Shown in pieces: positions 10,069 to 31,832 of a stretch of 32,000 bases of DNA. The notes under the pieces were generated by a model. It saw only the letters and a list, made by a program, of their open reading frames with translations, was not told where the DNA came from and did no database searches. Source of the stretch: Candidatus Brocadia sp. (lineage in GTDB: Bacteria; Planctomycetota; Brocadiia; Brocadiales; Brocadiaceae); the NCBI GenBank assembly GCA_021650915.1, contig CP091279.1, positions 1,950,001-1,982,000 of the forward strand. Direction: 5' to 3'. Position numbers and translations under genes: made by a program. How positions within the stretch are numbered: position 1 is the stretch's first letter; each line of letters begins with the position of its first letter.

Positions 10069-10152
10069 AGCGCCTCCTGAATTCATAATATCATACCGCA
10101 GCACAGCCGCAACCAATTCCACCTTAGACAAGGGGACAGTTGGTGTTTTTAG

Positions 10153-10929
10153 CTAAAATACCGGAATCTTCCCTTTCAAAAAATACTTAAAATAGAGTAA
10201 AAACACCAGGGTCAATGAATTGTGTAAGATATGCACAATGGTGGATGCAACAAGGGTTTGGGTCCTTTCATACAAATACCCAAGGAGCATTCCCAGGATA
10301 AATATTTGCAAAAAGGCGAAGATGTCCATGTGTACTGCCGCAAAGAGGAATGCGGTAATTGCAACGGCGTATCGCCCGCCGAACGAATTTTTCAATGCGG
10401 GCTGAAGAAAACCGCGAAACATAATCTCCTCCATGACGGGGGCAATAACAATCCCAAAAAAAATCAGGCTTCCCAGGACAAAGAGCGATTTTTCTTCCAG
10501 CACCCACTGGACGACATCCTGCATTTCCGGTATCTGCCCGTAATAACTGGATATCAGGTTGATGACAAAGCCTGCAAGTATGATAAGGGGGAGGGTGACG
10601 GCATAGCGTTTGACGCCTTGTTTGATATTTTCCGATAAATTTACTCCAGACAAACCCAGGGCGGTAACTGACTGTCGATATTCAATACAGACAACGTAAA
10701 ACACATAAGAGCAGATCAACGCGTTGATACAAAGGGAAAGGAAAAGGATCAGATTTCGTTGTCCAATGCTGTTTAGGGCGTGAAAACCAAAGAGGGTATT
10801 CATAAGCCGCACCATAACCGGCATGCCAAAAAACATAAGGACCACATAGACGAGAAAAACCTTTGCCGCATCCTTCAAATTCCAGCGACAATCCAATACC
10901 ATTCTGGGCCTCATCCGGATGCTATTCAT
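10153..10929 (-). CDS. CPBP-family intramembrane glutamic endopeptidase (CAAX protease-like)
   Basis: 258 aa and polytopic. It contains the EEIMFRGFLQ, FAAVH and HILHN motifs. Confidence 0.8.
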   Translation of the reverse strand: MNSIRMRPRMVLDCRWNLKDAAKVFLVYVVLMFFGMPVMVRLMNTLFGFHALNSIGQRNLILFLSLCINALICSYVFYVVCIEYRQSVTALGLSGVNLSENIKQGVKRYAVTLPLIILAGFVINLISSYYGQIPEMQDVVQWVLEEKSLFVLGSLIFFGIVIAPVMEEIMFRGFLQPALKNSFGGRYAVAITAFLFAAVHMDIFAFLQIFILGMLLGYLYERTQTLVASTIVHILHNSLTLVFLLYFKYFLKGKIPVF

Positions 10930-11332
10930 TTTTCATGATTTGTACAAAAACCTCTCTGCGTCTCGGTCCATCAAATTCACAGAAATAGATGCCCTGCCAC
11001 GTTCCCAGCGCTAATTTCCCAGACGAGACAGGCACGGATACGGAAGAGCCCACCAGGGTTGATTTGATGTGGGCGGCAGCATTTCCCTCTCCATGGGTAT
11101 AGCTGCCATTCCAGGGTATCAGACGGCTGAGATCATGCAAAATATCTTCCCGAACTGAAGGATCGGCGTTTTCATTGATCGTGATAGCTGCGGTAGTATG
11201 AGGCACATAGAGATAACATATCCCCTCTTTCATTGTTTGCTTTACGAGGAGTTTCTCTACTTCCCGTGTGATATCGATAAGCTCCGCACGCGCGTGTGTT
11301 GTTACCTGAATCTTTTCCATTGCACCATTCAA
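10922..11332 (-). CDS. yjbQ: YjbQ/UPF0047 family protein (secondary thiamine-phosphate synthase)
   Basis: 136 aa. The VPHTTAAITINENADP...GNAAAHIKS...GTWQGIYFCEFDGPR pattern is typical of YjbQ. Confidence 0.85.
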   Translation of the reverse strand: MNGAMEKIQVTTHARAELIDITREVEKLLVKQTMKEGICYLYVPHTTAAITINENADPSVREDILHDLSRLIPWNGSYTHGEGNAAAHIKSTLVGSSVSVPVSSGKLALGTWQGIYFCEFDGPRRREVFVQIMKNE

Positions 11333-11591
11333 TCCTTATCGTATAAAGACACTCATGCTCAAGCGGGCAGATGCCTCGCCCCGTCTTTTTCTGAAAATCA
11401 AAACGTTATAAGCGTCTATTTTACCAGTAATAATAAGGTATTCAAGGAAATTTGCTGCAAATGGTCTCCCTTCGTTGGTGCGGTCAGATACGACCTAACG
11501 ACGACATAAATGCATCTCACTCAGTCTGGAACAATAGGCATGAATGGGTTGAGTCGTTTGAAAATCCCCCGGGAGAGTTGTTTTTGTCCTC

Positions 11592-16616: not shown

Positions 16617-16694
16617 ATGTAAGACAAATAATAAACTTTTGTGTCATCAGGAATTTTTTTATTGATATCTTTGTTTTTCTACACAGGCAATCAC

Positions 16695-17099
16695 ATGAAA
16701 ATGAAAGAAGGTTGTTGGTCTGGCAAGAAGACAGTCGGTGTGCATATCCATCGTTATCTGCGATCTCTCTTCCTGGGCAGTATCCCGCTGCTGTTTCTTT
16801 TTAGTTGCGGGAGCGACCGCGTCAACGTTGAATTTCAAAGCTCACGGGAAGTTTATGACGATGCAAAAACGGACCCTGATAAACTGAACAGAGAGCTTGA
16901 ATATGATTTGAAAGAAGTGGAGAGACAGCGCTTACAGAAACAACGTGCGGAGGAAGCCGCGGCAAAGGCAAAGGCTGAAGCACAACGCAAGGCGGAGGCG
17001 CAGAGGGGCGATCAGAAACCGGAAACGGAAGCGGAAACTGAAATGGAAATGGAAACAGGCGAAGCGGCAGAGGCAGAATCGTCTCCGTTACAACCATAA
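16695..17099 (+). CDS. lipoprotein with Ala/Glu/Lys-rich low-complexity C-terminus
   Basis: Has the lipobox LLFLFSCGS followed by the charged repeat region QRAEEAAAKAKAEAQRKAEAQR...ETEAETEMEMET. The start is uncertain, with a GTG at 16641 also possible. Confidence 0.5.
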   Translation: MKMKEGCWSGKKTVGVHIHRYLRSLFLGSIPLLFLFSCGSDRVNVEFQSSREVYDDAKTDPDKLNRELEYDLKEVERQRLQKQRAEEAAAKAKAEAQRKAEAQRGDQKPETEAETEMEMETGEAAEAESSPLQP

Positions 17100-17125
17100 C
17101 TCGGGTATTTTTCAAGGAGAGAACC

Positions 17126-17710
17126 ATGTTCGGTAGAAAATTGGTAACGTTGTTCCTTTTGATCATCGCAACTTTTCTGGTGTTATACAGCTATGGATTT
17201 TATAAAAAGCGCCAGACCGTATCCCAGCTTGATGGAAAGATTAAAATGGGAAAATATACCGACGCCCTGGCCTCTGTCCAGAAACTGCAGGAATCTCCGG
17301 TCATTCGCATGATATCGAAATTAGAAAAGGAAGACCCGGTGATCGCCTATAATAAAGGGGTAATATATGTCCTCATGGAAAACAAAAAAAAGGCGAGCGC
17401 CGAGTTCCGAAGAGCGATGGAGACAGATGATCCTGTATTAAAGGCACGGGCTATTTACAATACCGCCAATATCATCGCAACCGATATGGATTTTTCCACT
17501 GCCGCCATGCAATATACCGAGGTATTGAAGATTGATCCCGATGATTTTCAGGCAAAAAAAAATTTAGAACGGATGAGGGTGGGTGAACAGCAGTTTAACA
17601 CGATGTTCAGCCCGGAGCAACAGGAACGGGAAGACAGAATTGAGGCATTAAAACTCCTCCCCTGGGGCACAAAATACAAATATAGCGGAGAACAAAAGAT
17701 CCGGTGGTAA
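17126..17710 (+). CDS. membrane-anchored TPR protein (BatC-like)
   Basis: 194 aa with an N-terminal TM segment (LVTLFLLIIATFLVLYSYGF) followed by TPR-like helices. It lies upstream of a vWA gene, as in Bat clusters. Confidence 0.6.
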   Translation: MFGRKLVTLFLLIIATFLVLYSYGFYKKRQTVSQLDGKIKMGKYTDALASVQKLQESPVIRMISKLEKEDPVIAYNKGVIYVLMENKKKASAEFRRAMETDDPVLKARAIYNTANIIATDMDFSTAAMQYTEVLKIDPDDFQAKKNLERMRVGEQQFNTMFSPEQQEREDRIEALKLLPWGTKYKYSGEQKIRW

Positions 17711-17752
17711 TTGTCTGAGAAGTGCAGAATACCTCAGCCAAAATAAAACACC

Positions 17753-18000
17753 TATAGTAATACTGTATAAAAACTTCTTTTTTTTGTAAGTTTTTTTACA
17801 AACCCCTTTCAGGAGGTACCGTTTTTTATGAGTGAAAGATTGCTTCGCGGAGTTTACACTGAGCACATCGAATGTGCTCGCAATGACAACGTGCAGTGTG
17901 CCATCAAAGTGCATGGTCGCTGTCATTGCGAGGGCATTTTCCGAAGCAATCTCCCCGCTTTCATAAAGGAAATTTGGTTGTGGCTGTGCCGCGCCAGGAA
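17753..18000 (+). repeat. copy B of the ~245-bp structured intergenic repeat
   Basis: See copy A. In this copy the P3 stem is a perfect 12-bp pairing (CTCGCAATGACA/TGTCATTGCGAG). Confidence 0.85.
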
Positions 18001-18090
18001 TAATGAGCAGGCAGGGACCCGTTACCAGAAAGGGAGCGCAGTGCTCTTTGACTTCTTATTCCTGACCACCGGTTTCACAAAATCTTTACC

Positions 18091-19101
18091 ATGTTATTTT
18101 TCAACTACGAAGCATACAGAATCCTTGTTTATGCCCTCTCAGGCCTGATTTTTCTCCTCTATCTCTGCCTTTACCGGAGAAAATTCCTGTGGTTAAGGGC
18201 CTTTGGCCAGCGCAGTCTTATTTCCCGTTTCAGCAGAATTCCCCCGACATACAGAAACCTCTTCAAGGGAGCCTGTATGAGCGCCGCATGTTGTGCCCTG
18301 GGGCTGGTTGTCTTGCAACCGAAGTGGCAGACCACCAGGGATCACTATGAAAAAGAAGGACTGGAGATCGTCTTCGTGCTCGATGTCTCCATCAGCATGC
18401 TCGCCGAAGATGTAAACCCCAACCGGTTGCAACGGGCAAAGATGGAGATATCCCATCTCGTGCGCCGGCTGGAAGGAGACCGTGTTGGCCTGGTCGTGTT
18501 TGCCGCCCGCGCGTTTTCCCTTCTCCCATACCCTACCAATGATTACGAGCGGGTCTTTCTCCGTGTCCTGAATATGATCAATGAAAATTACGTAAGGTTT
18601 GTGCCTTATGGGACGAACATCGGCAACGCCTTTATCCTGGCAATGGATAGCTTTAGCAAGGAAAACGCACGGAAGGTCATGATCCTGCTCACCGATGGCG
18701 AGGAACAAATCATTACCCGCAGCCAGGTGGCTGAGGCCGTGAAACTGTTGCTGGAGAGGAGAGATATCGTTATCTATGTCGTCGGCATTGGAGACCCCCG
18801 GAAGGCATCGCCCATACCCAAAAAAGACGCTGAAGCGAACGCGACAGAATACGAGGTTAACGAAGACGGGGAAACGATTTATACTAAACCCAATCCGGCA
18901 TTTTTGCGAGAGATTACAGAGATGGTTGGCGGAACCTATCAGCATGATGCCACGGGCAACGAGCTCAGACATATCTTCGAGCAGGTGCTCGAAAAAAACA
19001 AAAATATCGTTGGTATCAAAAAGAAAACGGTCATCAAGGATGTTTATCAGTATTTTGCGGGCGCCGCACTGGCGCTGCTTGCACTCTATTTTATTCTGTA
19101 A
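18091..19101 (+). CDS. vWA domain protein (BatA-like)
   Basis: 336 aa with N- and C-terminal TM segments. It has the MIDAS-type motif VFVLDVSISM and RVGLVVFAARAF typical of von Willebrand A domains. Confidence 0.8.
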   Translation: MLFFNYEAYRILVYALSGLIFLLYLCLYRRKFLWLRAFGQRSLISRFSRIPPTYRNLFKGACMSAACCALGLVVLQPKWQTTRDHYEKEGLEIVFVLDVSISMLAEDVNPNRLQRAKMEISHLVRRLEGDRVGLVVFAARAFSLLPYPTNDYERVFLRVLNMINENYVRFVPYGTNIGNAFILAMDSFSKENARKVMILLTDGEEQIITRSQVAEAVKLLLERRDIVIYVVGIGDPRKASPIPKKDAEANATEYEVNEDGETIYTKPNPAFLREITEMVGGTYQHDATGNELRHIFEQVLEKNKNIVGIKKKTVIKDVYQYFAGAALALLALYFIL

Positions 19102-19217: not shown

Positions 19218-21539
19218 ATGAATGATACCTTACTAAGACACCTGGGTTTAGACATTGAAAAAATTGCCGAAGAGATGCAGTTGCTTTCCGCTGATATTGA
19301 AGGAAACAAAGAGGCTTTGGTTAAGACGCTTGTCAGATATGACGAGGCAAAAAGGATCGCCAAAAATGCCGCGCTCTGGCAGTTTGGTTTGAGGCCGAAC
19401 CAAATACTATTCAGTGTGATAGACCAAACACGTCAGAATCAAACCATGAAAGAGCAGGCGGTGCGGGCGGTCGCGACACAGTATCTCGAGACATTTAAAC
19501 AGTCAAGAGAAGACGGCAGGGATAAATGCCTTACCCACAATGACCAGAGAGAACTCCTGGAATCAGCGCTGAAGATTCTCGTTAACTTTGAGAAAGAGAT
19601 GGACGGGAAAATTGAACCAGCAACATGCGCGCTCATTGCGAGAACATATCTGCTCAGAAGCGCTATTATGCTGCCTAAAGGTTTTACGGTGCCGGAAAAG
19701 AAAAAGGAGGCATTGCGAAAGGGTAGCGAATATATACGCACGATTGACGATTTAACGGAAGAAGCATTGCGCGTTCGCGGCAGTCTTCTTCTGGAACAGA
19801 GGCATATTGATATTCTGGAAAAAAATCGTGAATCCAACGGCGATAATCAAACTCTTATAAAAGAGCTGCGCGAAGCCCTTGAAAACGGCTGCGACAAATT
19901 TAATAACACAATTGAAGACGTGAGGATTGCCCTCTGTTACATCGAATTAACGGATGACAAGACAGATCTCTTGCAAAAGATAATAGACTCTCAACTCGAT
20001 TTCCCGGGGATCGAACTCTACCGGCTCAAGGCCTACTTTTTGAAAGGTGATTATGCCGCTATCAGTGATGAGGCTTTAAAAGAAGAGCTTAGCGGTATCC
20101 GTTTTAACCATCCGGTCTGGAATGAGGCAATGATCTTTATAAAACAGCTTAAGGATGCACAGGCAGATTGCTGGAGAAAATTAGCGTTAGCTGCTTATCA
20201 GGTATGCAGAACGCGAGAAAGTGAGACGTCCTCACTTCACCTTCGCTGGTACTGGTCTGGATACCGGCTGCTGTATGATCTTGCTTTTATTGCAGAAGAC
20301 GACCTCCACAGAAAGGCGGAAATTGCCGATTCGCTAAAAAGCCGGGTTTCCCTTCATGCAAAGGCGCTGGATGAAATTATTAAAAACGACAAGGAGAGAG
20401 AAGAATACTATAATGCCCATGCAGTTGCTTATGCTGGTGGGTACGTGAAAGGGGCGGGAAGAATTCATACGGGAAGGAAAGAAAAGGACTGCGACACAAA
20501 CAATGTCTTCAAAGCACTTCCAAAGGATGTTGCAATTGTTGCCTTTTATCTGAATTACTGTGAAAAGAACAAGGACTCACGGGGAAGGGGCTACGCCCTG
20601 ATTGCGGAAAACGGCACATGGAATATAAAGGAATTTCCCTTTGACAGCCTTTACAAGGCATATTTGACGTGGCAGACAAATTATGCACGGCACAAGGAGT
20701 CTGCGTCACCGTCTCTGGTCGAATTGTGTGAAGAGATAGGCAGGGCAATGCCCTTTCTTTTTGAAATAACGAAGAAAAGAATTGTCTTTGTGCCACATGA
20801 TTTTTTGCATCGATTGCCGCTGCATGGGGCAATAAAAAGAGAATGGCCGAAAGTCTTATTGGAGGAATACTCTTGCTTGTACTTGCCGGCCTGGTCATTG
20901 TTACACGCCGATACAACAAAATCCTCACAGACGGCCAGGAAAAGGATGCTCATAGAATGTTTTCATGAATATGATTATCATGAATTACAGACAAAGATAA
21001 ATGCACAGATAAAAGAGAGTAAGGGTGTTGTATGGGAAAAGCGAGAGAAGGCAAAGCCAAAAGACCTTTTGCAGATTCCTGAAGCGCCTGAAATCCTCAT
21101 GATATTATCGCATGGAAGGGCCGATATGACAAACCCCTATTATGCAAGGCTTAAGCTGGAAGGTGGAGATGTATCTGCTTTGGAAATCATGAAAGCCAAA
21201 ACCGGAACCATGAGTATCAAGGGCAGCAACGTAATCATGGGTTGCTGTGAAACTGATCTGTTGCCAGTATTATCAACACCCATTGATGAACATGTGTCGC
21301 CAGCGACAGCATTATACACCAGGGGGGCAAATTTTGTAGTTGGAACCATGTGGGAAATAAACCCCATAGATATAGAAAGGCATTTCATTGAACTATTAAC
21401 GAAAAATGATAATAGTATGTTGGAAGGTGTTGGAAATTGGCAAAGAGAAGGGTTGTCAGATGATAAATGGAAGAAGCACAAAGAATCGAGATTTTTCTAT
21501 GCTATTATTGGATTCAGAGTATTAGGTATCTTTACATGA
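19218..21539 (+). CDS. csx29: TPR-CHAT caspase-like protease (Csx29-like, type III-E accessory)
   Basis: 773 aa with a helical TPR-like N-terminal ~520 aa. The C-terminal CHAT domain has the motifs VFVPHDFLHRLPLHGA, LYLPAWSLL, ILMILSHGRAD (His codon 21111-21113) and NVIMGCCETD (Cys codons 21243-21248). It sits next to a Cas7-11-like gene. Confidence 0.85.
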   Translation: MNDTLLRHLGLDIEKIAEEMQLLSADIEGNKEALVKTLVRYDEAKRIAKNAALWQFGLRPNQILFSVIDQTRQNQTMKEQAVRAVATQYLETFKQSREDGRDKCLTHNDQRELLESALKILVNFEKEMDGKIEPATCALIARTYLLRSAIMLPKGFTVPEKKKEALRKGSEYIRTIDDLTEEALRVRGSLLLEQRHIDILEKNRESNGDNQTLIKELREALENGCDKFNNTIEDVRIALCYIELTDDKTDLLQKIIDSQLDFPGIELYRLKAYFLKGDYAAISDEALKEELSGIRFNHPVWNEAMIFIKQLKDAQADCWRKLALAAYQVCRTRESETSSLHLRWYWSGYRLLYDLAFIAEDDLHRKAEIADSLKSRVSLHAKALDEIIKNDKEREEYYNAHAVAYAGGYVKGAGRIHTGRKEKDCDTNNVFKALPKDVAIVAFYLNYCEKNKDSRGRGYALIAENGTWNIKEFPFDSLYKAYLTWQTNYARHKESASPSLVELCEEIGRAMPFLFEITKKRIVFVPHDFLHRLPLHGAIKREWPKVLLEEYSCLYLPAWSLLHADTTKSSQTARKRMLIECFHEYDYHELQTKINAQIKESKGVVWEKREKAKPKDLLQIPEAPEILMILSHGRADMTNPYYARLKLEGGDVSALEIMKAKTGTMSIKGSNVIMGCCETDLLPVLSTPIDEHVSPATALYTRGANFVVGTMWEINPIDIERHFIELLTKNDNSMLEGVGNWQREGLSDDKWKKHKESRFFYAIIGFRVLGIFT

Positions 21540-21619
21540 TTGCATGACTATAGCAGGGTCTAATAGTTATTATTGAATTAGGCCTTCGGCGGCTTTATAA
21601 GGTTAAACCCACCTCTGAA

Positions 21620-21650
21620 TCCCCTCCCAGGAGGGGACTTCTTTCGTCCC
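21620..21650 (+). terminator. GC-rich hairpin downstream of csx29 (possible terminator or REP-like element)
   Basis: TCCCCTCC (21620-21627) pairs with GGAGGGGA (21630-21637) and is followed by the pyrimidine-rich CTTCTTTCGTCCCTTCTT. The loop is very short and the U-tract imperfect. Confidence 0.3.
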
Positions 21651-21786
21651 TTCTTGAGAGGGGGTTGGGGGTGTGTAAGGCAGGAGCAGAAAGATTGAAA
21701 TTCCTTAATCATGAATTAATCAGTACCATTTGATTTCTGGCAAAAGAAACTATTGATACCGTTGATTGATGTCAAAAGGAAGATGA

Positions 21787-22362
21787 ATGGACACAAACTA
21801 TTTTGATATGGTGGGACGCATTTATTCTGAAAATCATGAAAAGCTTATTAACTATGCACGCAAACATTATCCAATATTGAAACAAGAAGAAATAGAAGAC
21901 GTTGTCCACGATGTCTCTATCGAGATAATAAAAATGATACAGGCGTTATCTAAAACGGGAAATAGTATTGATAAAAAACTCGTCATAGGTTCTTTTTATA
22001 AACGGGTAAGATGCAGGTGTATCGATAGAGGTAGAAAAAAACAGGAAGAGTCAAAAGAAGAAGGTGTGCTTGATAATAAAATGTTTAAAAAGACTAACTC
22101 AGGGATTCCTTCGGAGCAGAAATGGTTCCATCCGGAAGATGCGCCAGATAATATCAATAAAGAAAAGTTAAATATAGCAATGAGTAAAATGGAGCAAGAG
22201 TGCTTAAAAACAATAAAATTATTTTATCTGAGCGAAGCTTCTTTATCTCATCGGGAAATAGCGAATGAATTACAAATTTCGGAAGAAAACTCAAGGAAGA
22301 GGTTGTCACGATGTATGAAGACGCTTAAGAAGTATTTTGATAAAGAAATAAATAAAATTTAA
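21787..22362 (+). CDS. rpoE: ECF/RpoE-like sigma-70 family factor (type III-E associated)
   Basis: 191 aa. It has a region-2-like segment (EEIEDVVHDVSIEIIKM) and a region-4 HTH (LSHREIANELQISEENSRKRLSRCMKTLKKYF), joined by an unusually long charged linker. Confidence 0.75.
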   Translation: MDTNYFDMVGRIYSENHEKLINYARKHYPILKQEEIEDVVHDVSIEIIKMIQALSKTGNSIDKKLVIGSFYKRVRCRCIDRGRKKQEESKEEGVLDNKMFKKTNSGIPSEQKWFHPEDAPDNINKEKLNIAMSKMEQECLKTIKLFYLSEASLSHREIANELQISEENSRKRLSRCMKTLKKYFDKEINKI

Positions 22363-22374
22363 AGAAGATATCAT

Positions 22375-23244
22375 ATGTGTGAAAGATCGGAACAGTATCA
22401 GGAGATGATGTTTGCATATATCGAAGGCATGCTGGAACCAGAAGAGAAGAAAATCTTTGAGCTTCATTTACAAGGTTGCAACAGTTGCAGGGAAGAACTT
22501 CAAAAGACTAAAAAACTAGTTGACATGCTTAAGGAAATACGTTTTAGACCCAATATGGTAACGGAAGATTGCAAAAATTATGACGTCGTGGGATACGCTT
22601 TTGACGAGCTGACACCAGAGGAAAGAGAAACCACCGCAATGCACATCGCAAAATGTGATCATTGTCTATTTGAGGTAATCGATCTGAAAGCCATAAAGAA
22701 AAATGATGTCGATGTTGATAATTCACAGGCGCAAACACCTGATGCGATAAAAGCAAATCTGTATGGCAATTGGATTAACCATAATATTATTGAATTCATA
22801 AGCGACAGCGTAGACTTGAAATTACCTCTTGCGGCAGGGCCTGCCGGGTTCAAAAAAACCCGGAAGGTTGGCAACAGATACATGATCAGCATTTCTCCAA
22901 AGAATGGAGAGATATCCTTGATGAAAGAAGATGCCTGTCATAGCGTCTTAAAACCAGTAAGAGACATCATTAATGGCCACTATTTTTATTATAAAATTTT
23001 TGGATTAGTAAAAGATTTAAAACAATGTGAATTGCTTTCGGGCAAAGAAAGATTCTTGCCAATTACAATAAAATTACCAACAAGAGACCTTTCTGCTTTG
23101 TACATATTTATTTCACAAAGAGAGGATGTTATACAACAAATTACCTTAGATTGGATGCTAAACGTCGCAAAAGGTACCCTTCAGCAACCGATAAATGAAG
23201 TTATTTATATCTATGCAAAAATTTGTTGGGAAGTGATGAAATAA
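22375..23244 (+). CDS. soluble anti-sigma-like protein with two tandem zf-HC2 (H-x3-C-x2-C) motifs, in the Csx30 position
   Basis: 289 aa. Motif 1 is AYIEGMLEPEEKKIFELHLQGCNSCREEL (H codon 22465, C 22477, C 22486). Motif 2 is FDELTPEERETTAMHIAKCDHCLFEV (H 22642, C 22654, C 22663). No TM segment is present. The start is 12 nt after the rpoE stop, and the stop is 2 nt before the cas7-11 ATG. Confidence 0.65.
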   Translation: MCERSEQYQEMMFAYIEGMLEPEEKKIFELHLQGCNSCREELQKTKKLVDMLKEIRFRPNMVTEDCKNYDVVGYAFDELTPEERETTAMHIAKCDHCLFEVIDLKAIKKNDVDVDNSQAQTPDAIKANLYGNWINHNIIEFISDSVDLKLPLAAGPAGFKKTRKVGNRYMISISPKNGEISLMKEDACHSVLKPVRDIINGHYFYYKIFGLVKDLKQCELLSGKERFLPITIKLPTRDLSALYIFISQREDVIQQITLDWMLNVAKGTLQQPINEVIYIYAKICWEVMK

Positions 23245-23246
23245 TA

Positions 23247-26200
23247 ATGTCTAAAACAGATGATAAAATAGATATCAAACTCACGTTTCTCGAACCATAC
23301 CGCATGGTAAATTGGTTAGAAAATGGTTTGAGAATGACCGATCCAAGATACCTGCGAGGTCTCTCTTTTGCCCGGTGGCATCGGAATAAAAATGGCAAGG
23401 CGGGAAGGCCGTATATTACGGGTACGCTTTTGCGGTCGGCAGTCATTCGGGCGGCTGAGGAGTTGTTGTCACTCAATTTGGGTAAGTGGGGTAAACAACT
23501 GTGTTGCCCGGGGCAGTTTGAAACAGAAAGGGAAATGAGGAAAAACAAGACTTTTCTCAGGCGAAGGCCCACCCCTGCCTGGTCTGCCGAAACAAAAAAA
23601 GAAATCTGCACTACCCATGGGAGCGCATGCGCATTCTGTCTCCTCCTGGGAAGAAGATTGCATGGAGGAAAAGAGGATGTCAATGAGGATGCCCCTGGAA
23701 GCTGTCGTAAACCCGTGGGTTTCGGCAATCTCAGCCTTCCATTTCAGCCCACAAAACGACAAATACAGGATGTCTGCAAAGAGCGCGTTTTAAACAGGGT
23801 TGACTTTCGTACCGGCAAAGCGCAGGACTATTTCAGGGTTTTTGAGATTGATCACGAAGATTGGGGTGTTTACACCGGCGAGATAACCATAACAGAGCCA
23901 CGCGTACAAGAGATGCTTGAAGCGTCTCTTAAATTTGTTGATACCTTATGTGGCGCCCTGTGCAGGATTGAGATTGTCGGGAGCGCCGATGAAACGAAAA
24001 GAACTACATCATCAAAAGAAGGGTGTCCTGCCTCCACTACCACCAGAGATTGCTCGTCTTCAGAAAACGATGATACCAGTCCGGAGGATCCTGTACGTGA
24101 GGATTTGAAAAAAATAGCTCATGTCATAGCGAATGCCTTTCAAAATAGCGGTAACAGGGAAAAGGTACACGCCCTTGCTGACGCAATAAGGGCCATGCGG
24201 TTAGAAGAGAGCTCTATTATCAATACCTTGCCTAAAGGGAAGTCAGAAAAAACAACAGAGCAGATTGAGGTAAATAAGCATTACTTGTGGGACGAAATAC
24301 CGGTTAATGACACGTCAGTAAGGCATATATTAATAGAACAATGGAGGCGGTGGCAGTCAAAGAAGGATGATCCCGAATGGTGGAAATTTTGTGATTTTTT
24401 GGGAGAGTGCCTTTACAAGGAATACAAGAAGTTAACGTCAGGCATTCAATCAAGGGCGCGGGTAATGGGTGAGACGGAATATTACGGCGCGCTGGGTATG
24501 CCCGACAAGGTAATCCCGCTTCTTAAAAGCGACAAAACGAAGGAATGGATTCTTGTCGGAAGCCTGAAGGCAGAGACCCCGTTCTTTTTTGGGTTAGAGA
24601 CGGAGCAAACAGAAGAGGTTGAACATACCAGCCTGCGGTTGGTAATGGACAAAAAGGGCCGGTTTCGCATTCCCCGCTCCGTTCTGAGAGGGGCATTGCG
24701 GCGTGATATGCGTATTGCATTTGACAGCGGTTGCGACGTCAAACTTGGCAGTCCTCTCCCCTGTGATTGTTCGGTGTGTCAGGTTATGAGAAGTATTACA
24801 ATAAAGGACTCCCGGAGCGAAGCGGGCAAGCTGCCCCAGATTCGGCACCGGATCAGGCTCAACCCCTTTAGCGGTACGGTTGATGAAGGAGCCCTCTTCG
24901 ATATTGAAGTAGCGCCTGAAGGAGTTATATTCCCCTTTGTGATGCGCTACCGGGGAGAGGAATTTCCGCCCGCTCTGTTGAGTGTTATCAGATACTGGCA
25001 GGATGGTAAGGCGTGGCTGGGGGGCGAAGGCGCTACCGGGAAGGGGCGTTTTGCCCTCGCCAAAGACCTCAAAATGTATGAGTGGAAGCTCGAAGATAAA
25101 TCTTTGCATGCATATATTGATACGTATGGCCACAGAGGAAATGAACATGCAATAGGAACCGGGCAGGGCATCGATGGTTTCCGGTCGGGTTCCCTGTCTG
25201 ATTTATTGTCTGACATATCAAAAGAAAGTTTCCGCGATCCCCTTGCATCTTACCACAACTATCTTGACAAGCGATGGATTAAGGTTGGTTATCAAATAAC
25301 CATAGGTGCGCCGTTGCTTTCTGCGGATCCCATCGGCGCCTTGCTTGACCCAAACAACGTGGACGCCATCGTATTTGAAAAGATGAAGCTGGATGGCGAT
25401 CAGGTGAAATATCTTCCGGCGATAAAGGGAGAAACGATTCGGGGTATTGTCAGGACTGCCCTGGGGAAAAGAAATAACCTTCTAGCGAAGAATGATCATG
25501 ATGACTGCACTTGCTCCCTGTGCGCCATCTTTGGAAATGAAAACGAAACAGGCAAAATCCGCTTTGAGGATCTGGAGGTATATGATAAAGACATTGCGAA
25601 AAAAATCGATCACGTCGCGATTGACCGGTTTACCGGCGGCGCAAGGGATCAGATGAAATTTGACACCCTGCCGCTTATCGGCAGCCCTGAACGTCCCCTC
25701 AGACTGAAAGGCCTCTTTTGGATGCGAAGGGATGTGTCGCCGGATGAGAAGGCCAGGATTTTGCTGGCATTTCTGGAAATTCGGGAAGGTCTCTATCCCA
25801 TTGGCGGAAAAACAGGGTCGGGGTATGGTTGGGTATCAGACCTGGAATTTGATGGCGATGCACCGGAAGCGTTCAAAGAGATGAACTCGAAAAGGGGCAA
25901 ACAAGCATCTTTCAAAGAAAAGATTTCCTTCCGGTATCCCTCCGGAGCGCCGAAGCATATCCAAAATCTCAAAGCGACGTCTTTCTATTATCCGCACTAC
26001 TTTCTTGAGCCAGGGAGCAAGGTGATAAGAGAACAAAAGATGATTGGGCATGAGCAGTATTATGAGTCGTATCCATCCGGCGCTTCTGGGGAAAAGCTTT
26101 TGTCTGGCAGGATAATCTGTAGCATGACCACCCATACCCCTCTTATTGTACCCGATACCGGAGTAATAAAAGATCCTGAAAATAAACACGCAACGTATGA

Positions 26201-28148
26201 TTTTTTTCAGATGAACAATGCGATAATGATCCCTGGTTCAGAGATACGCGGCATGATAAGCGCCGTGTATGAAGCAATGACAAATTCCTGTTTTCGCATC
26301 TTCCACGAGAAGCAATATCTGACGAGAAGAATCTCTCCCGAAGATAAAGAATTGAGAGAATTCATCCCGGGGATAGTCAGGATAATAAACGGAGACGTGT
26401 ATATTGAAAAGGCAGAAAGGGAGTACCGCCTGCCTCTCTATGATGATGTGCATATCATTACGAATTATGAAGAGCTGGAATATGAAAAATATATTAAGAA
26501 AAACCCTGGCCGGGAGCAAAAGATAAAGAATGCCCATCGCTTCAATAAAAACATAGCGCGTATTGCAGAATCCAACAGAAACTATTTATGCTCTCTGGAT
26601 CGCGCCGTTCGGCGTGAAATCTTATCGGGCAGGAAAAAAGTGAATTTCCGGTTGGTGAAGGTAAACGATAATAAAAATCCGGATAAAGAAGCTGTTGAGT
26701 TATGCAAGACCGGGCCATTAGAGGGCCTTGTGAAATTCAGCGGTTTGAACGCAGTAAACATATCAAACCTGCGTCCCGGAACAGCAGAGGAGGGATTTGA
26801 TGCCAAATGGGATATGTGGTCGTTAAATATTATTCTGAATCGTATGGATGTGCGAAACAGCCAAAAGAAGGAATATCCAAGGCCAGCGTTACATTTTAAT
26901 CACGATGGCAAGGAGTACACTATTCCTAAACGATGTGAAAGGGTCTTTGTGAGGGCAGAAGCAGGGAAAAGGGCTGAGACGGAGGGTTCTTATAAAGTGC
27001 CCCGTAAGGTGCAGGAACAGTACCAAAATATCCTGCGTGATTACGAGTCTAACATTGGCCATATCGATAATACGTTCAGAACGTTGATTGAAAACTGTGG
27101 CCTGAACAATGGGAGCCTGGTATATTTTAAACCTGATAACAGTCGTAAGGAAGTAGTGGCAATAACCCCGGTAAAAATATCCCGGAAAACCGACCGCCTG
27201 CCCCAGGGAGACAGATTTCCACACACCTCTTCAGACCTCCGGCCATGCGTAAGGGATTGCCTGGATACCGAGGGCGATATTCGCATGCTTGAGAATTCAC
27301 CTTTCAAAAGACTCTTCCATATACATCCCGAAGGTCTGTGTCCTGCATGTCAATTGTTTGGCACAACGAACTACCGGGGCAGGGTTCGCTTCGGTTTTGC
27401 CAGTTTGAGTGATGGCCCAAAATGGTTCAGGAAAGACGAGGGTAACGAAACGTGTCATATAACCCTGCCCTTGCTGGAAAGACCGCGACCCACCTGGTCA
27501 ATGCCGGATGATACCAGCACGATTCCGGGGAGAAAGTTTTATGTGCATCATATGGGCTATGAAACCGTGAAGAAAAATCAGCGGACTCTTGTAAAAACGG
27601 AGAATAACCGCACCGTAAAGGCATTAGACAAAGAGAATGAATTTACCTTTGAAGTTTTTTTCGAAAATCTGAGAGAGTGGGAATTGGGGCTTCTCTTACA
27701 TTGTCTGGAACTTGAACCGGAGATGGGACATAAGCTTGGTATGGGTAAACCGCTCGGATTTGGAAGTGTGAAGATACGGATAGACAAATTACAGAAGTGT
27801 GTCGTAAACGTAAAAGACGGTTGCGTTTTGTGGGAACCGGAAGAAGATAAGATTCAGCATTATATTGCCAAAGGCCTGGGAAAATTAACAACGTGGTTTG
27901 GGAAAGAGTGGGATCGTCTCGAACATATCCAGGGGCTGCGCTCACTGCAGAGACTTCTCCCCCTGAACGAAAATCTCACCGTAAAATATCCTGCTCTCAA
28001 TAACGAAAGCGATGGCGCTGAATCAGGCTACACCTATGAAGAACTTTCCAAAACAAGAGAATCAGAAGGGAAAGCGAAGAAAATTCAGGGGAGAATACGC
28101 GACCTCAAAACCCCCTGGAAAGAGATAGCTCAAAAGGTGAAGCATTGA
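23247..28148 (+). CDS. cas7-11: Cas7-11 / gRAMP-like single-protein type III-E effector (four fused Cas7/RAMP modules plus a Cas11-like region)
   Basis: 1633 aa from the ATG at 23247; the ORF is open from a TTG at 23223. There are four RAMP glycine/arginine motifs: ITGTLLRS (from nt 23415), RIPRSVLRG (24666), IKGETIRG (25422) and IPGSEIRG (26229). Each is paired with a Cys cluster: CC...C..C (23502-23637), C...CxC..C (24732-24777), CxC..C...FG (25506-) and C...C...C..CQLFG (-27348). A terminal G-rich loop GMGKPLGFGSVKI starts at nt 27738. The gene lies directly upstream of a CRISPR array whose repeat ends in the III-E-type ATGTCACGGTAC. Confidence 0.9.
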   Translation: MSKTDDKIDIKLTFLEPYRMVNWLENGLRMTDPRYLRGLSFARWHRNKNGKAGRPYITGTLLRSAVIRAAEELLSLNLGKWGKQLCCPGQFETEREMRKNKTFLRRRPTPAWSAETKKEICTTHGSACAFCLLLGRRLHGGKEDVNEDAPGSCRKPVGFGNLSLPFQPTKRQIQDVCKERVLNRVDFRTGKAQDYFRVFEIDHEDWGVYTGEITITEPRVQEMLEASLKFVDTLCGALCRIEIVGSADETKRTTSSKEGCPASTTTRDCSSSENDDTSPEDPVREDLKKIAHVIANAFQNSGNREKVHALADAIRAMRLEESSIINTLPKGKSEKTTEQIEVNKHYLWDEIPVNDTSVRHILIEQWRRWQSKKDDPEWWKFCDFLGECLYKEYKKLTSGIQSRARVMGETEYYGALGMPDKVIPLLKSDKTKEWILVGSLKAETPFFFGLETEQTEEVEHTSLRLVMDKKGRFRIPRSVLRGALRRDMRIAFDSGCDVKLGSPLPCDCSVCQVMRSITIKDSRSEAGKLPQIRHRIRLNPFSGTVDEGALFDIEVAPEGVIFPFVMRYRGEEFPPALLSVIRYWQDGKAWLGGEGATGKGRFALAKDLKMYEWKLEDKSLHAYIDTYGHRGNEHAIGTGQGIDGFRSGSLSDLLSDISKESFRDPLASYHNYLDKRWIKVGYQITIGAPLLSADPIGALLDPNNVDAIVFEKMKLDGDQVKYLPAIKGETIRGIVRTALGKRNNLLAKNDHDDCTCSLCAIFGNENETGKIRFEDLEVYDKDIAKKIDHVAIDRFTGGARDQMKFDTLPLIGSPERPLRLKGLFWMRRDVSPDEKARILLAFLEIREGLYPIGGKTGSGYGWVSDLEFDGDAPEAFKEMNSKRGKQASFKEKISFRYPSGAPKHIQNLKATSFYYPHYFLEPGSKVIREQKMIGHEQYYESYPSGASGEKLLSGRIICSMTTHTPLIVPDTGVIKDPENKHATYDFFQMNNAIMIPGSEIRGMISAVYEAMTNSCFRIFHEKQYLTRRISPEDKELREFIPGIVRIINGDVYIEKAEREYRLPLYDDVHIITNYEELEYEKYIKKNPGREQKIKNAHRFNKNIARIAESNRNYLCSLDRAVRREILSGRKKVNFRLVKVNDNKNPDKEAVELCKTGPLEGLVKFSGLNAVNISNLRPGTAEEGFDAKWDMWSLNIILNRMDVRNSQKKEYPRPALHFNHDGKEYTIPKRCERVFVRAEAGKRAETEGSYKVPRKVQEQYQNILRDYESNIGHIDNTFRTLIENCGLNNGSLVYFKPDNSRKEVVAITPVKISRKTDRLPQGDRFPHTSSDLRPCVRDCLDTEGDIRMLENSPFKRLFHIHPEGLCPACQLFGTTNYRGRVRFGFASLSDGPKWFRKDEGNETCHITLPLLERPRPTWSMPDDTSTIPGRKFYVHHMGYETVKKNQRTLVKTENNRTVKALDKENEFTFEVFFENLREWELGLLLHCLELEPEMGHKLGMGKPLGFGSVKIRIDKLQKCVVNVKDGCVLWEPEEDKIQHYIAKGLGKLTTWFGKEWDRLEHIQGLRSLQRLLPLNENLTVKYPALNNESDGAESGYTYEELSKTRESEGKAKKIQGRIRDLKTPWKEIAQKVKH

Positions 28149-28405: not shown

Positions 28406-29701
28406 GTTGGCAAGGACGTCCTACCTTTATATGTCACGGTACTTTTTTATTAGACTAGCTGATAGATACCTGTTCGGATGTTGGCAAGGACGTCCTACCT
28501 TTATATGTCACGGTACCCATATTCTCTCGGCCGTGTCGTAGCCTACGACAAAGGTTGGCAAGGACGTCCTACCTTTATATGTCACGGTACCTTACTTGTG
28601 CCCTCTTCCTTCAACAACTCATCAGCCAGTTGGCAAGGACGTCCTACCTTTATATGTCACGGTACCTATTATTAAACTAGGCGCGTGGAGCCCGCTAATC
28701 GTTGGCAAGGACGTCCTACCTTTATATGTCACGGTACATTTTACGTCGATCCACGGCACATTGTCGTCCACTGTTGGCAAGGACGTCCTACCTTTATATG
28801 TCACGGTACGAATACAACTACCATCGGTCGGACTCCGACCTTTCGTTGGCAAGGACGTCCTACCTTTATATGTCACGGTACATCTGCTATCCTAATTGCT
28901 AAAAGGATCGGGCAATCCCCGGGTTGGCAAGGACGTCCTACCTTTATATGTCACGGTACTTTTTCCCTTCCAATTCATCTTTCCTCCTCCTCCCCGCGTT
29001 GGCAAGGACGTCCTACCTTTATATGTCACGGTACATCCAAATGATGTTCCATGTTCCACCTCCCCACAGACAGTTGGCAAGGACGTCCTACCTTTATATG
29101 TCACGGTACACACAGACCGCCTACAACGTGTCCGGCGATCTTTGTGGTTGGCAAGGACGTCCTACCTTTATATGTCACGGTACAGATCCCTCCGCCTCTT
29201 TTCACACAGACCGCCTACAGTTGGCAAGGACGTCCTACCTTTATATGTCACGGTACGCTACCACAACGCGCCCTTCGCTTATAGGTTTTTTGGTTGGCAA
29301 GGACGTCCTACCTTTATATGTCACGGTACCCATCCTCTCTGGCAGCGTCCGATAACCCCACCATATGTTGGCAAGGACGTCCTACCTTTATATGTCACGG
29401 TACAGCGCATCCCTCAAGTTGCCATCCCTGTCCCACATCTGTTGGCAAGGACGTCCTACCTTTATATGTCACGGTACTTGATGCCCGATGCCACAATGGC
29501 GTGGGCTCCGGCATCTGTTGGCAAGGACGTCCTACCTTTATATGTCACGGTACTCGCCCTTTCGCAGTACTGAAAATTGATTCCGTCAAAAGTTGGCAAG
29601 GACGTCCTACCTTTATATGTCACGGTACTTAAGGTGAAGCATTCTCCTTTCTCTCTAACTCTTCAATGGTTGGCAAGGACGTCCTACCTTTATATGTCAC
29701 G
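28406..29701 (+). CRISPR. CRISPR array, main part: 17 intact 37-bp repeats plus the first 33 nt of repeat 18
   Basis: The repeat is GTTGGCAAGGACGTCCTACCTTTATATGTCACGGTAC. Copies start at 28406, 28480, 28554, 28629, 28701, 28773, 28845, 28923, 28998, 29073, 29147, 29220, 29293, 29367, 29441, 29517, 29592 and 29669. There are 17 unique spacers of 35-41 bp. Confidence 0.97.
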
Positions 29702-31742
29702 CAGGGTAACGTCAAAGTCATGCTAGGCAAAAAAGGGGGAGTGTCAGGGCAAGGGAAAGAAGGGGTTTGAAGAGGGAAAAACGAGCAAAGACACGAAAAG
29801 ATGACAAAAAAAGGCATAAAAGACAAGGGAATCCCCATGTGCCTCGAAGGGCATGGGAAATAAGGGGGGAAGGGGAAGAAAGAGACGTTATAAGCGAAGG
29901 AGTTTCAGGGCAAGGTGAGGTTGGTAGGTTAAATTTCTAAGAGTTTGTGCGATAGCGGTTCTTCCCAGTGAGCGAAAGATGCTGATGATGCAATTTTTGA
30001 GGGAGGCCATAACCCTGGGTGCATGGTTTGTTCGAATCGGGGAGCGGTCTTCATCAAAGGTGACATCACGAACGTAATGGAGGCTGTTTTCAATACTCCA
30101 ATGTCCCCGGTTCAAGCGGAGTATGCGGGCAGGGTCTGCCTTTTGTTGCGTAAGGCTGGTAATGCCATAGACCGTTTCTTCGGTTGTTTTTTGGGATTTG
30201 AGGTAGGTAAATTTTCTGTGGATACAAAAGACCTGTCCAACCAAGGGGAATGCAAGGTAATGGTTTAAATCGGCGCTGGTCCAGACCTGGCGGATTTCAA
30301 TGCGTCCGTGATGTTTGTCGATGGTTTTGTGCTGAGGGGGGAAAAGAGACCAGGCGGAGGTCTTCGATATGTTGTCTGAGAGTGGGTTGGTTGTCTTTTA
30401 CGGTAAAGAGGTAATCGGCTTTCTTGTCTTCAACGAGATACCGCGCCGTCTCTTTTTGGGTATGCAGGGCATCGAGAGTGACCACCTTGTCCTTGATGTC
30501 TAAGGGGTCAAGGAGGGTTTTCAGCGTTGGGATTTCGTTGGTTTTCTGGTCAACGGGACATTGGGCGATAACGACGCCTTTTTGCTGGAGAAAGGCAGAG
30601 AGGAGATGGATTTTCTGCCCGTTTTCCTGGTATGCGCCCTTGAGGGTCTTCCCGTCAATGGCAATGGCGGTATCTTCTCCGGCAAGGGACTGAAGCCAGC
30701 CGTAGAGGGCCGTATCTACCGCTTCGGCATCAACGTCTTGCAGGAACCTGCGGATGGTAGGTTCGCTGGGAGGTTCATAGATGCCGGTCTTTGGGTTCAG
30801 ACGACAGCCGAGACGTTTGAGCATATTTTGACTGCATGATTTTGCCCACTCAGCGATAGCGGCAAAGCTTGTGGCAGAACACAGCAGGGCGCAAAGAGAA
30901 AGGGTCATGACGGAGAGCTTTCTGTGTCGTTTGCCGCGTGATAGACGGGGATCAGGAATCTGGGATAATCGTTCTTTCAGTGATTCAGCATCTTTCAGAG
31001 AAAGGCGCATCGGTTTTACCTCCTTTGGGGTGTTTCGGGTTTCGAGATACGGTTCAGAGAGTTTTCTTTTCCCATCGGGAAGAACAGGACGAACAAAGAC
31101 CATCTTGGGTTGGTTGTGGGAATAATACCGGTGAGCGCATTTTGCAAACCCGCGGGTATATCCCAGAAACTCCCAGCCCTGGGCCTTGTAACAGGTGCCC
31201 TTGAAAGAGCGCGGATCGACAAAGGTCTCTGCAAGATAGATCGGATGGTTATAGATGGTTTGCCAGTCCCGGGATAATCGTTTGAGATTCCGGGCGAGGA
31301 CATAAGAGGCAAGGTTGGGTATACGGACATGAGGGAAGATCAGGAAACGACTGTTATTGGCAACAAAAGACAACCGCCGGTACTGAAGAAAGCAAGGCCA
31401 TCCTATCCAGCGGTCTCGTACCTTGCATTTGAGCGCCGCTGCTGACCATCCGATCAAGGCAAGCCATTGTCCCTGGTGTATCGCCAGATACCGGATGCTT
31501 TCCCCGATCAGAGAGTGAAGCCCAGGATAATGGTATTGGCGCATGAGTTCGTCCCATCGGGTTCGTTCTTCCCGACGGATGGGTCTTACTTCAATGCCGT
31601 GAAGACCGCCCGATGGTACTACGCTTTTTCGTGTCTCTTCATGGTTCATGAATCTATTATACAAGAACCATTTTGAAAAAGTCAGTTTATTCCTTTTCTT
31701 TTTTACGTGTCAGTACTTGCGCTTATACTTGACGTAGCCCTG
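29702..31742 (-). mobile_element. ISAs1-family-like insertion sequence inserted in CRISPR repeat 18
   Basis: 2041 bp. The imperfect terminal inverted repeats CAGGGTAACGTCAA (29702-29715) and TTGACGTAGCCCTG (31729-31742) match at 12 of 14 positions. A 10-bp direct duplication ATATGTCACG lies at 29692-29701 and 31743-31752. Removing the IS and one duplication copy restores an intact 37-bp repeat. Confidence 0.85.
29888..31664 (-). pseudogene. ISAs1-type DDE transposase with an N-terminal DUF4338-like domain, frameshifted
   Basis: The 455-aa ORF (31664-30297) carries the ISAs1 hallmark LSQIPDPRLSRGKRHRKLSVMTLSLCALLCSATSFAAIAEW. The second frame (open from ~30350, ending at 29888) continues with HKTIDKHHGRIEIR...GHWSIENSLHYVRDVTFDEDRS. 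The frames switch near the G6/A4 homopolymers at 30336-30345. Confidence 0.8.
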
Positions 31743-31832
31743 ATATGTCACGGTACTAATCGTTTTCGTTTGCGATTACATTTTTGCCACTTTTTGTTGA
31801 TAAGGATGTCCTGCCTTTCTTGCATTCCCCGT
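31743..31832 (+). CRISPR. distal end of the same CRISPR array: 3' part of repeat 18, spacer 18, degenerate terminal repeat
   Basis: ATATGTCACGGTAC (31743-31756) is followed by a 39-bp spacer (31757-31795). The diverged repeat GTTGATAAGGATGTCCTGCCTTTCTTGCATTCCCCGT (31796-31832) matches 19 of the first 23 positions, and its 3' third is degenerate. Confidence 0.8.

Follow-up and report, generated by a model that had tools for sequence, protein, structure and literature searches.

A tandem zinc-binding anti-sigma protein with a Csx30-type C-terminal domain as the probable protease substrate of a type III-E CRISPR locus in Candidatus Brocadia

In the type III-E CRISPR loci of Desulfonema ishimotonii, Candidatus (Ca.) Scalindua brodae and Ca. 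Jettenia caeni, a slot beside csx29 and the gRAMP gene is taken by a Csx30/CASP-sigma/Csx31 module. The same slot is filled in another way in a Ca. Brocadia sp. genome (GenBank assembly GCA_021650915.1). There, in a stretch of 32,000 nucleotides (contig CP091279.1, positions 1,950,001 to 1,982,000 of the forward strand; hereafter the window, numbered from its first letter), it holds a gene for an extracytoplasmic function (ECF)-type sigma factor, followed by a gene for a protein of 289 amino acids (aa) with two zinc-binding anti-sigma (ZAS) domains. Is this pair the protease-controlled output of the III-E system, as a preliminary description of the sequence had proposed, and if so, is the 289-aa protein a divergent Csx30 or a different solution to the same logic? 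The analysis presented here makes it probable that the 289-aa protein is both the anti-sigma factor and the protease substrate of a compact III-E (Craspase) sub-lineage, a 'mini-Csx30'. The elements that define the locus are as follows.

19218..21539, + strand: csx29, TPR-CHAT protease of 773 aa (NF041237, 729 bits against a cutoff of 300; Pfam CHAT domain)
21787..22362, + strand: ECF-type sigma factor of 191 aa (TIGR02937; Pfam Sigma70_r2 and r4 below gathering threshold)
22375..23244, + strand: 289-aa ZAS protein, the putative mini-Csx30 (tandem ZAS domains and a Csx30-type C-terminal domain)
23247..28148, + strand: gRAMP/Cas7-11 effector of about 1,630 aa (NF041225, 2214 bits)
28406..29702, + strand: CRISPR array of 18 repeats of 37 nt, repeat GTTGGCAAGGACGTCCTACCTTTATATGTCACGGTAC

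The sigma and ZAS genes, whose open reading frames (ORFs) lie where they had first been placed, thus sit between csx29 and the gRAMP/Cas7-11 gene, all on the + strand, with the CRISPR array 3' of gRAMP. The locus is of type III-E, as the window holds gRAMP/Cas7-11, a Csx29 TPR-CHAT protein with its His-Cys dyad, and an array. The catalytic dyad of Csx29 (H632 and C677) is intact and is invariant in an alignment of 11 Csx29 sequences, and Csx29 is the presumed protease for the 289-aa protein. Spacing is tight: 12 nt on the same strand separate the stop codon of the sigma gene from the start of the ZAS gene, and only 2 nt separate the ZAS stop codon from the gRAMP ATG (23247), a junction that was read directly.

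The N-terminal part of the 289-aa protein is a classical ZAS region. Pfam zf-HC2 (PF13490) matches it over two separate stretches (52.8 bits against a cutoff of 22.2, E 4e-14), and a regular-expression search finds the motifs H31-x3-C35-x2-C38 and H90-x3-C94-x2-C97, each preceded by an acidic helix (EGMLEPEEKK and DELTPEERE). Direct sequence matches, all weak, are to RsiW, RslA (3HUG), DdvA and ChrR. No transmembrane segment is found in the protein, the maximum Kyte-Doolittle mean over 19 residues being 1.01, and an AlphaFold2 (AF2) model built from the family alignment is soluble and helical-plus-beta. On all these points (motifs, acidic helices, solubility) the preliminary description was accurate. 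The AF2 model has a mean predicted local distance difference test (pLDDT) score of 83.5, with low confidence only at residues 113-119 and 154-158, and resolves three helical features.

22390..22536, + strand: ZAS unit 1, aa 6-54, with H31/C35/C38 (AF2 helices 6-16, 22-34 and 36-54)
22564..22710, + strand: ZAS unit 2, aa 64-112, with C66/H90/C94/C97 (AF2 helices 64-75, 81-93 and 95-112)
22738..22797, + strand: long connecting helix, aa 122-141 (AF2 model)

In both units the motif lies at the junction of helices II and III of a helical bundle, flanked by helices 22-34/36-54 and 81-93/95-112 at a pLDDT of about 90. The helix at 122-141 is possibly, going by the model, the fourth helix of the anti-sigma domain, and C66, 24 residues before H90, is a plausible fourth zinc ligand. 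Six residues are invariant in the alignment of 16 family members: C66, H90, C94, C97, F204 and Y206. As C66, H90, C94 and C97 are kept in all 16, selection acts on the motif, which is no chance match. ZAS unit 1 has been lost in four of the 16 members (P0009, P0014, P0024 and P0028). Unit 2 can therefore be regarded as the conserved core and unit 1 as accessory, and unit 2 is probably the core sigma- and zinc-binding unit, as predicted from sequence conservation. The start codon of the gene is ambiguous. The NCBI start is M11 (22405, giving 279 aa), whereas a start at M1 (22375, 289 aa) adds C2; convincing Shine-Dalgarno spacing is found at neither. The M1 start is plausible, since homologues bear an N-terminal extension of similar length.

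The neighboring sigma factor is a generic ECF protein (TIGR02937, 59 bits against a cutoff of 42.9), in line with its initial assignment as ECF-like. It does not belong to the canonical CASP-sigma family, scoring 24.2 bits against a cutoff of 100 with NF041236 (III-E RpoE-like sigma), the model on which the Jettenia sigma scores 154.6 bits. The sigma factors of the other loci with ZAS proteins (ZAS-type loci) likewise match the generic ECF model only and miss NF041236. The linker between sigma regions 2 and 4 had been called unusually long; in the TIGR02937 alignment, residues 12-183 cover model positions 6-164, an excess of about 13 residues, so that the extra length is marginal. A word-indexed homologue search with the sigma factor returned self matches only. 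As for gene arrangement, the ECF sigma gene adjoins the anti-sigma candidate in the manner of a co-transcribed pair, and this pairing is kept in related loci.

Since a word-indexed search with the ZAS protein also gave self matches only, an exhaustive HMMER search of 1.84 billion representatives was required. This returned 94 matches, 12 of them at E<=1e-10, and about 19 clusters related to the 289-aa protein. Short forms of 276-299 aa (P0002-P0004, P0006 and P0007) match it over the full length at 29-38% identity. Long forms of 440-550 aa bear a further helical domain (about 215 aa) at the N-terminus; it is conserved and carries the motifs SDxYLLLEIF and EWWY, and no profile signal equates it with the canonical Csx30 N-terminal domain. 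No conserved stretch of 7-10 residues is found in the ZAS family alignments. For every relative with a contig that reaches past the gene, the surroundings are a type III-E locus and the next gene downstream is gRAMP. The commonest order, Csx29 - sigma - ZAS protein - gRAMP, recurs in at least six divergent III-E loci, and the relatives are arranged as follows.

L008/L009: P0003, in the order Csx29 - sigma - ZAS protein - gRAMP
L010/L011: P0004, in the order Csx29 - sigma - ZAS protein - gRAMP
L012/L013 and L016: P0010 type, in the order Csx29 - sigma - ZAS protein - gRAMP
L001: P0002, in the order Csx29 - sigma - ZAS protein - gRAMP, on a short contig
L003: P0005 (long form), in the order Csx29 - sigma - 251 aa - P0005 - gRAMP

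The extra 251-aa gene of L003 (9230-9985), between sigma and the long ZAS gene (10001-11524), has no Pfam or NCBIfam match. A search for related loci with the Csx29 alignment returned eight loci, D. ishimotonii and S. brodae not being among them. In the Ca. Brocadia sp. metagenome-assembled genome DTUAMX2 (L015:9884-12184), csx29 shares its upstream neighbors with L008, and no sigma, ZAS or gRAMP gene follows downstream of it. Decay or rearrangement of a III-E locus may lie behind this.

The tandem ZAS arrangement had been described as unusual in itself, a view that the wider search does not sustain: 59 of the 75 non-family matches carry two to four HxxxCxxC motifs at a spacing of about 55-80 residues. 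A hydrophobic, transmembrane-like segment is present in some of the multi-ZAS proteins inspected (among matches P0013-P0093); others, which are soluble, have beta-rich C-termini that share the motif GPExPDAxGRFGPWP. Multi-ZAS architectures in the databases appear to be largely uncharacterized.

The link to Csx30 lies in the C-terminal part of the protein.

22807..23223, + strand: C-terminal beta domain, aa 145-283, with the Csx30 C-terminal fold (AF2, Foldseek and profiles)

In a Foldseek search of 350,542 PDB chains with the AF2 model, the top match, and the only one at E<=1e-3, was 8EEY_E (E 4e-4, probability 1.00, target-normalized template modeling score 0.59). This chain is the portion of D. 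ishimotonii Csx30 (Di-Csx30), its C-terminal domain, that is visible bound to Csx29. Profile matches back the fold. A hidden Markov model (HMM) of the family C-terminal domain matches the Di-type Csx30 of locus L018 at residues 444-543 (E 4e-5, among 927 ORFs), and alignment of the linker and C-terminal domain with the Di-type Csx30 group by hhalign gives E 1.9e-4 over 88 columns. At the level of fold, supported by these profile matches, the domain is that of Csx30.

Two relatives provide independent support. P0010 (L012:3870-4844) and its relative in L016 (9668-10642), both of 324 aa, combine the same tandem ZAS N-terminus with a Jettenia-type Csx30 C-terminal domain, which is 35% identical to residues 440-578 of Ca. 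Jettenia caeni Csx30 (Jc-Csx30; E 2e-20). Jc-Csx30 itself is cleaved experimentally at A434|S435 (PMC11106740). The ZAS lineage and that of canonical Csx30 have clearly shuffled domains. Apart from ZAS, too, the C-terminal domain is found. In the III-E locus L022 (6484-16245) the gene order is Csx29 - 420-aa protein (weak RpoD-like match, E 0.001) - 270-aa protein - gRAMP - RT-Cas1 (reverse transcriptase-Cas1), and the 270-aa protein, directly upstream of gRAMP, has the ZAS-family C-terminal domain (HMM E 2.9e-25) with a different N-terminus that lacks the ZAS motif. The domain has therefore been joined to other N-terminal modules.

A further observation comes from L018, a canonical deltaproteobacterial III-E locus. 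Between its csx30 and csx29 genes are encoded a 706-aa protein of the RNase II/R family (RNB domain, E 4e-71) and a protein of 308 aa (L018:3859-6915). At its C-terminus, the 308-aa protein shows weak similarity to the Csx30 C-terminal domain (E 4e-5 with NF041234, E 0.003 with the family C-terminal-domain HMM), and it could be a second Craspase substrate tied to an RNase.

The window and the ZAS-type loci were compared with canonical loci (Ca. Jettenia caeni, L005; L007; L017-L020). The canonical loci bear CASP-sigma (NF041236, 154.6 bits), Csx31 (NF041235, 452.8 bits) and a Csx30 of about 575 aa, that of L018 matching 8EEY chain E (D. ishimotonii Csx30) with E 1.8e-72. The HxxxCxxC motif is in none of the canonical-locus Csx30 proteins examined. 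An HMM of the canonical Csx30 N-terminal domain, built here, retrieves all nine canonical Csx30 proteins (E 1e-92 to 1e-140) and nothing in the window or the ZAS-type loci. Likewise, an HMM of Csx31 built here has no match in any ZAS-type locus or, in the Brocadia genome, within the window, to which the search of that genome was confined, and models of Csx30, Csx31 and Cas1 have no match among the larger window ORFs scanned. The ZAS HMM matches ZAS-type loci only, and the HMMs of Csx31 and of the canonical Csx30 N-terminal domain match canonical loci only. From these reciprocal matches and the sigma model scores it follows that the two module sets are mutually exclusive in the sampled loci. 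In a rough, unbootstrapped neighbor-joining tree of Csx29, the ZAS-type loci cluster, next to the Jettenia locus.

The 289-aa protein shares with canonical Csx30 the C-terminal beta fold, a flexible loop at the start of that domain and an adjacent ECF-type sigma gene, and presumably also sigma inhibition relieved by protease cleavage. However, it is half as long as canonical Csx30 (about 560-580 aa), it has two zf-HC2 domains in place of the helical N-terminal domain, its locus type lacks Csx31, and its sigma factor falls outside NF041236. Divergent Csx30 and different solution accordingly both apply, each to one part of the protein: a divergent Csx30 domain makes up the C-terminal part, and a classical ZAS region takes the place of the canonical Csx30 N-terminal domain.

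What is known of Di-Csx30 suggests how such a protein might work. Its C-terminal domain alone suffices for binding to the CHAT2 domain of Csx29 and for cleavage; contacts at the interface are electrostatic, the C-terminal surface being basic; a flexible loop (423-437) that opens the C-terminal domain holds the M427|K428 cut site; and the full-length protein blocks CASP-sigma, a block lifted by cleavage (PMC10028731). The 289-aa protein has a candidate equivalent of the loop.

22822..22857, + strand: candidate Csx29 cleavage loop PLAAGPAGFKKT, aa 150-161 (inferred from AF2 and the Di-Csx30 analogy)

This loop lies between strands 145-149 and 162-166 of the AF2 model, with pLDDT below 50 at 154-158, and an Ala/Gly-rich segment is kept at its position across the family alignment. 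The C-terminal domain is net basic (21 K/R against 14 D/E), and the ZAS part is acidic. As the protein has an analogous loop and a basic C-terminal domain, and the Csx29 dyad is intact, the following mechanism is proposed. The tandem ZAS domains, with unit 2 as the core, would bind the ECF sigma factor, the product of the gene immediately upstream, and keep it silent. The C-terminal beta domain, by analogy the presumed Csx29-docking domain, would dock on the CHAT domain of Csx29 and tether the sigma complex there. Binding of a non-self target RNA by gRAMP and its CRISPR RNA (crRNA) would activate Csx29, which would then cut the 289-aa protein, most likely in the disordered Ala/Gly-rich loop 150-161 that opens the C-terminal domain. 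The N-terminal fragment, with the sigma factor still bound, would be destabilized or degraded, or would lose affinity, and the freed sigma factor would switch on a defense regulon.

Several points weigh against this reading. The domain make-up, the conserved synteny, the fold match and the lack of Csx31 and of a canonical Csx30 N-terminal domain are observed; sigma binding and cleavage, like zinc binding, docking, the cleavage site and sigma release, are what we infer, and for the first two this counts against it. The ties to Csx30 at the level of sequence are weak. NF041234 (NCBIfam Csx30, cutoff 125 bits) has no match to the window protein at E<=1, nor to ten ZAS family members at E<=0.01; as a control, the model does match the 308-aa protein of L018. 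The family profile does not retrieve 8EEY_E in a PDB sequence search, and PDB sequence searches with the 289-aa protein, a long-form homologue and the family profile gave weak ZAS anti-sigma matches only and no Csx30. Over the whole length, hhalign of the family against canonical Csx30 is not significant (E 0.043). The next Foldseek matches are generic Ig-like beta-sandwiches at E of about 3e-3, only about 7-fold worse than 8EEY_E. The gap between csx29 and the sigma gene is 247 bp (21540-21786), against mostly 30-70 bp in related loci, and holds a GC-rich terminator-like hairpin. Finally, the route from a cut near the C-terminal domain to sigma release is not settled even for canonical Csx30.

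The strongest alternative, an unlikely one, is that sigma and ZAS protein are an ordinary stress-sensing pair, responding to redox, thiol or zinc like RsrA/ChrR, that regulates transcription of the III-E locus as DdvA/DdvS does for a CBASS (cyclic-oligonucleotide-based antiphage signaling system)/III-B island, with the 289-aa protein not a Csx29 substrate. In its favor are the gap with its terminator-like hairpin upstream of the sigma gene, the canonical zf-HC2 domains and the known control of defense islands by ECF sigma/anti-sigma pairs (PMC11506125). No ECF-type promoter motif common to the sigma genes was seen when their upstream regions in seven loci were compared. Left unexplained by a stress-sensing pair are the conserved Csx30-fold C-terminal domain, the strict placement of the gene between csx29 and gRAMP in every locus, the chimeras with a genuine Jc-Csx30 C-terminal domain, and the reciprocal absence of Csx30 and Csx31.

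Somewhat less probable again is that the main output is a toxic abortive-infection effector, either the freed C-terminal domain or the cleaved protein, with sigma sequestration secondary or absent. Kato et al. report that Csx30 and its N-terminal fragment are toxic and that the C-terminal domain is similar to secretion or pilus components, and in the 270-aa protein of L022 this domain occurs without ZAS. However, Strecker et al. saw no toxicity of Csx30 fragments and showed sigma inhibition, an ECF sigma gene always adjoins in ZAS-type loci, and ZAS unit 2 is invariant.

Very improbable is decay of the locus, with the gene as the leftover of a longer Csx30-like gene that has lost its N-terminal part. 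In favor of it are the existence of long forms with the extra domain of about 215 aa, the ISAs1 transposase fragments at 29888-31664 next to the array and the lack of adaptation genes (no cas1) in the window. Against it, short forms are kept at only 29-38% identity in at least five independent loci in the same order, the ORF is intact and tightly coupled to its neighbors, and Csx29, gRAMP and the array are intact as well; the reading as a truncated pseudogene was rejected.

The first proposal, of a protease-controlled anti-sigma factor, is well supported in silico by the recurrent gene order and the Csx30 C-terminal fold, but not in its two side claims on linker length and tandem rarity. The remaining features of the window are listed for completeness.

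21620..21637, + strand: terminator-like GC hairpin of uncertain function (consensus-scan match only)
16641-19101, same strand, just 5' of csx29: cluster encoding proteins of 152 aa, 194 aa (TPR), 106 aa and 336 aa (VWA domain)
29888-31664, minus strand, directly 3' of the array: ISAs1-family transposase fragments (118 aa and 455 aa)
about 31720-31756, beyond the ISAs1 fragments: orphan degenerate repeat (…CCCTGATATGTCACGGTAC)

A VWA_2 gene is likewise found upstream of csx29 in L003. The CRISPR repeats end in ATGTCACGGTAC. Because the ISAs1 fragments adjoin the array and an orphan degenerate repeat lies beyond them, the arrangement suggests that the array was split or truncated by insertion of the element. 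The remainder of the window consists of housekeeping genes in addition to the TPR/VWA cluster and the ISAs1 fragments.

Among known systems, the ZAS part resembles the zf-HC2 class I ZAS anti-sigma factors RsrA, ChrR, RslA and RsiW, sharing the HxxxCxxC motif at the helix II/III junction, the preceding acidic helix and the adjacent cognate ECF sigma gene. Unlike these, the window protein is soluble and carries two ZAS units in tandem; where they have a transmembrane, cupin or periplasmic sensor domain, it has a Csx30-type domain at its C-terminal end. Its presumed trigger is an RNA-guided CHAT protease, whereas theirs is redox stress or site-1/site-2 proteolysis. In the CalpL-CalpT-CalpS system, a CRISPR-controlled protease cuts a soluble anti-sigma factor and frees an ECF-like sigma factor (10.1101/2024.05.08.593097), logic that the window presumably shares. 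There, however, the protease is a SAVED-Lon protein activated by the second messenger cyclic tetra-adenylate (cA4) and the anti-sigma fold is another one, whereas activation in the window would be by direct RNA-guided allostery. In DdvA-DdvS of Myxococcus xanthus, ZAS, a TPR-CHAT protease-like domain and an ECF sigma factor likewise form one defense-regulating circuit, but ZAS and TPR-CHAT are fused in a single transmembrane protein that regulates CBASS and type III-B (PMC11506125). In the window the two are carried by different proteins, both cytoplasmic, and the CHAT protease belongs to an RNA-guided effector.

Anti-sigma factors relieved by protease cleavage are known from Csx30, CalpT and RseA/RsiW, and the Brocadia protein is therefore not a new category. 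The fusion of tandem ZAS with a Csx30 C-terminal domain, as an RNA-guided protease route to sigma release, is apparently undescribed. No paper joining 'type III-E' with zf-HC2 was found, subscription-only papers not being fully checkable, and no title or abstract in the Csx30 literature from 2023 on points to a ZAS-type variant. The only public annotation found for the gene is 'zf-HC2 domain-containing protein', and for this reason ZAS-type loci are scored as lacking Csx30.

In the published picture, Csx30 has a highly conserved N-terminal domain and needs the partners Csx31 and CASP-sigma; in the preprint of Kato et al., only the C-terminal domains diverge, forming seven groups. The ZAS-type lineage has swapped the N-terminal domain, Csx31 and the canonical sigma factor for a textbook ZAS/ECF pair and kept only the Csx30-type C-terminal domain. 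This supports anti-sigma logic as the conserved function and the C-terminal domain as a protease-targeting module. It also offers a smaller, three-protein system (Csx29, sigma and the 289-aa substrate) for the study of sigma release, and a shorter natural substrate that could serve Craspase-based RNA sensors. More tentatively, and somewhat against the odds, evolution may have used the Csx30 C-terminal domain as a portable 'Craspase-recognition cassette', attached to N-terminal modules as varied as the canonical Csx30 N-terminal domain, the tandem ZAS of the window, the non-ZAS region of L022 and perhaps the 308-aa protein beside the RNase II/R homologue of L018, by which III-E proteases have been rewired to different outputs. 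If so, Brocadia would have a minimal sigma-release switch that does without Csx31, and the zinc-thiolate ZAS sites of this switch could add a protease-independent redox or zinc input to the same sigma factor.

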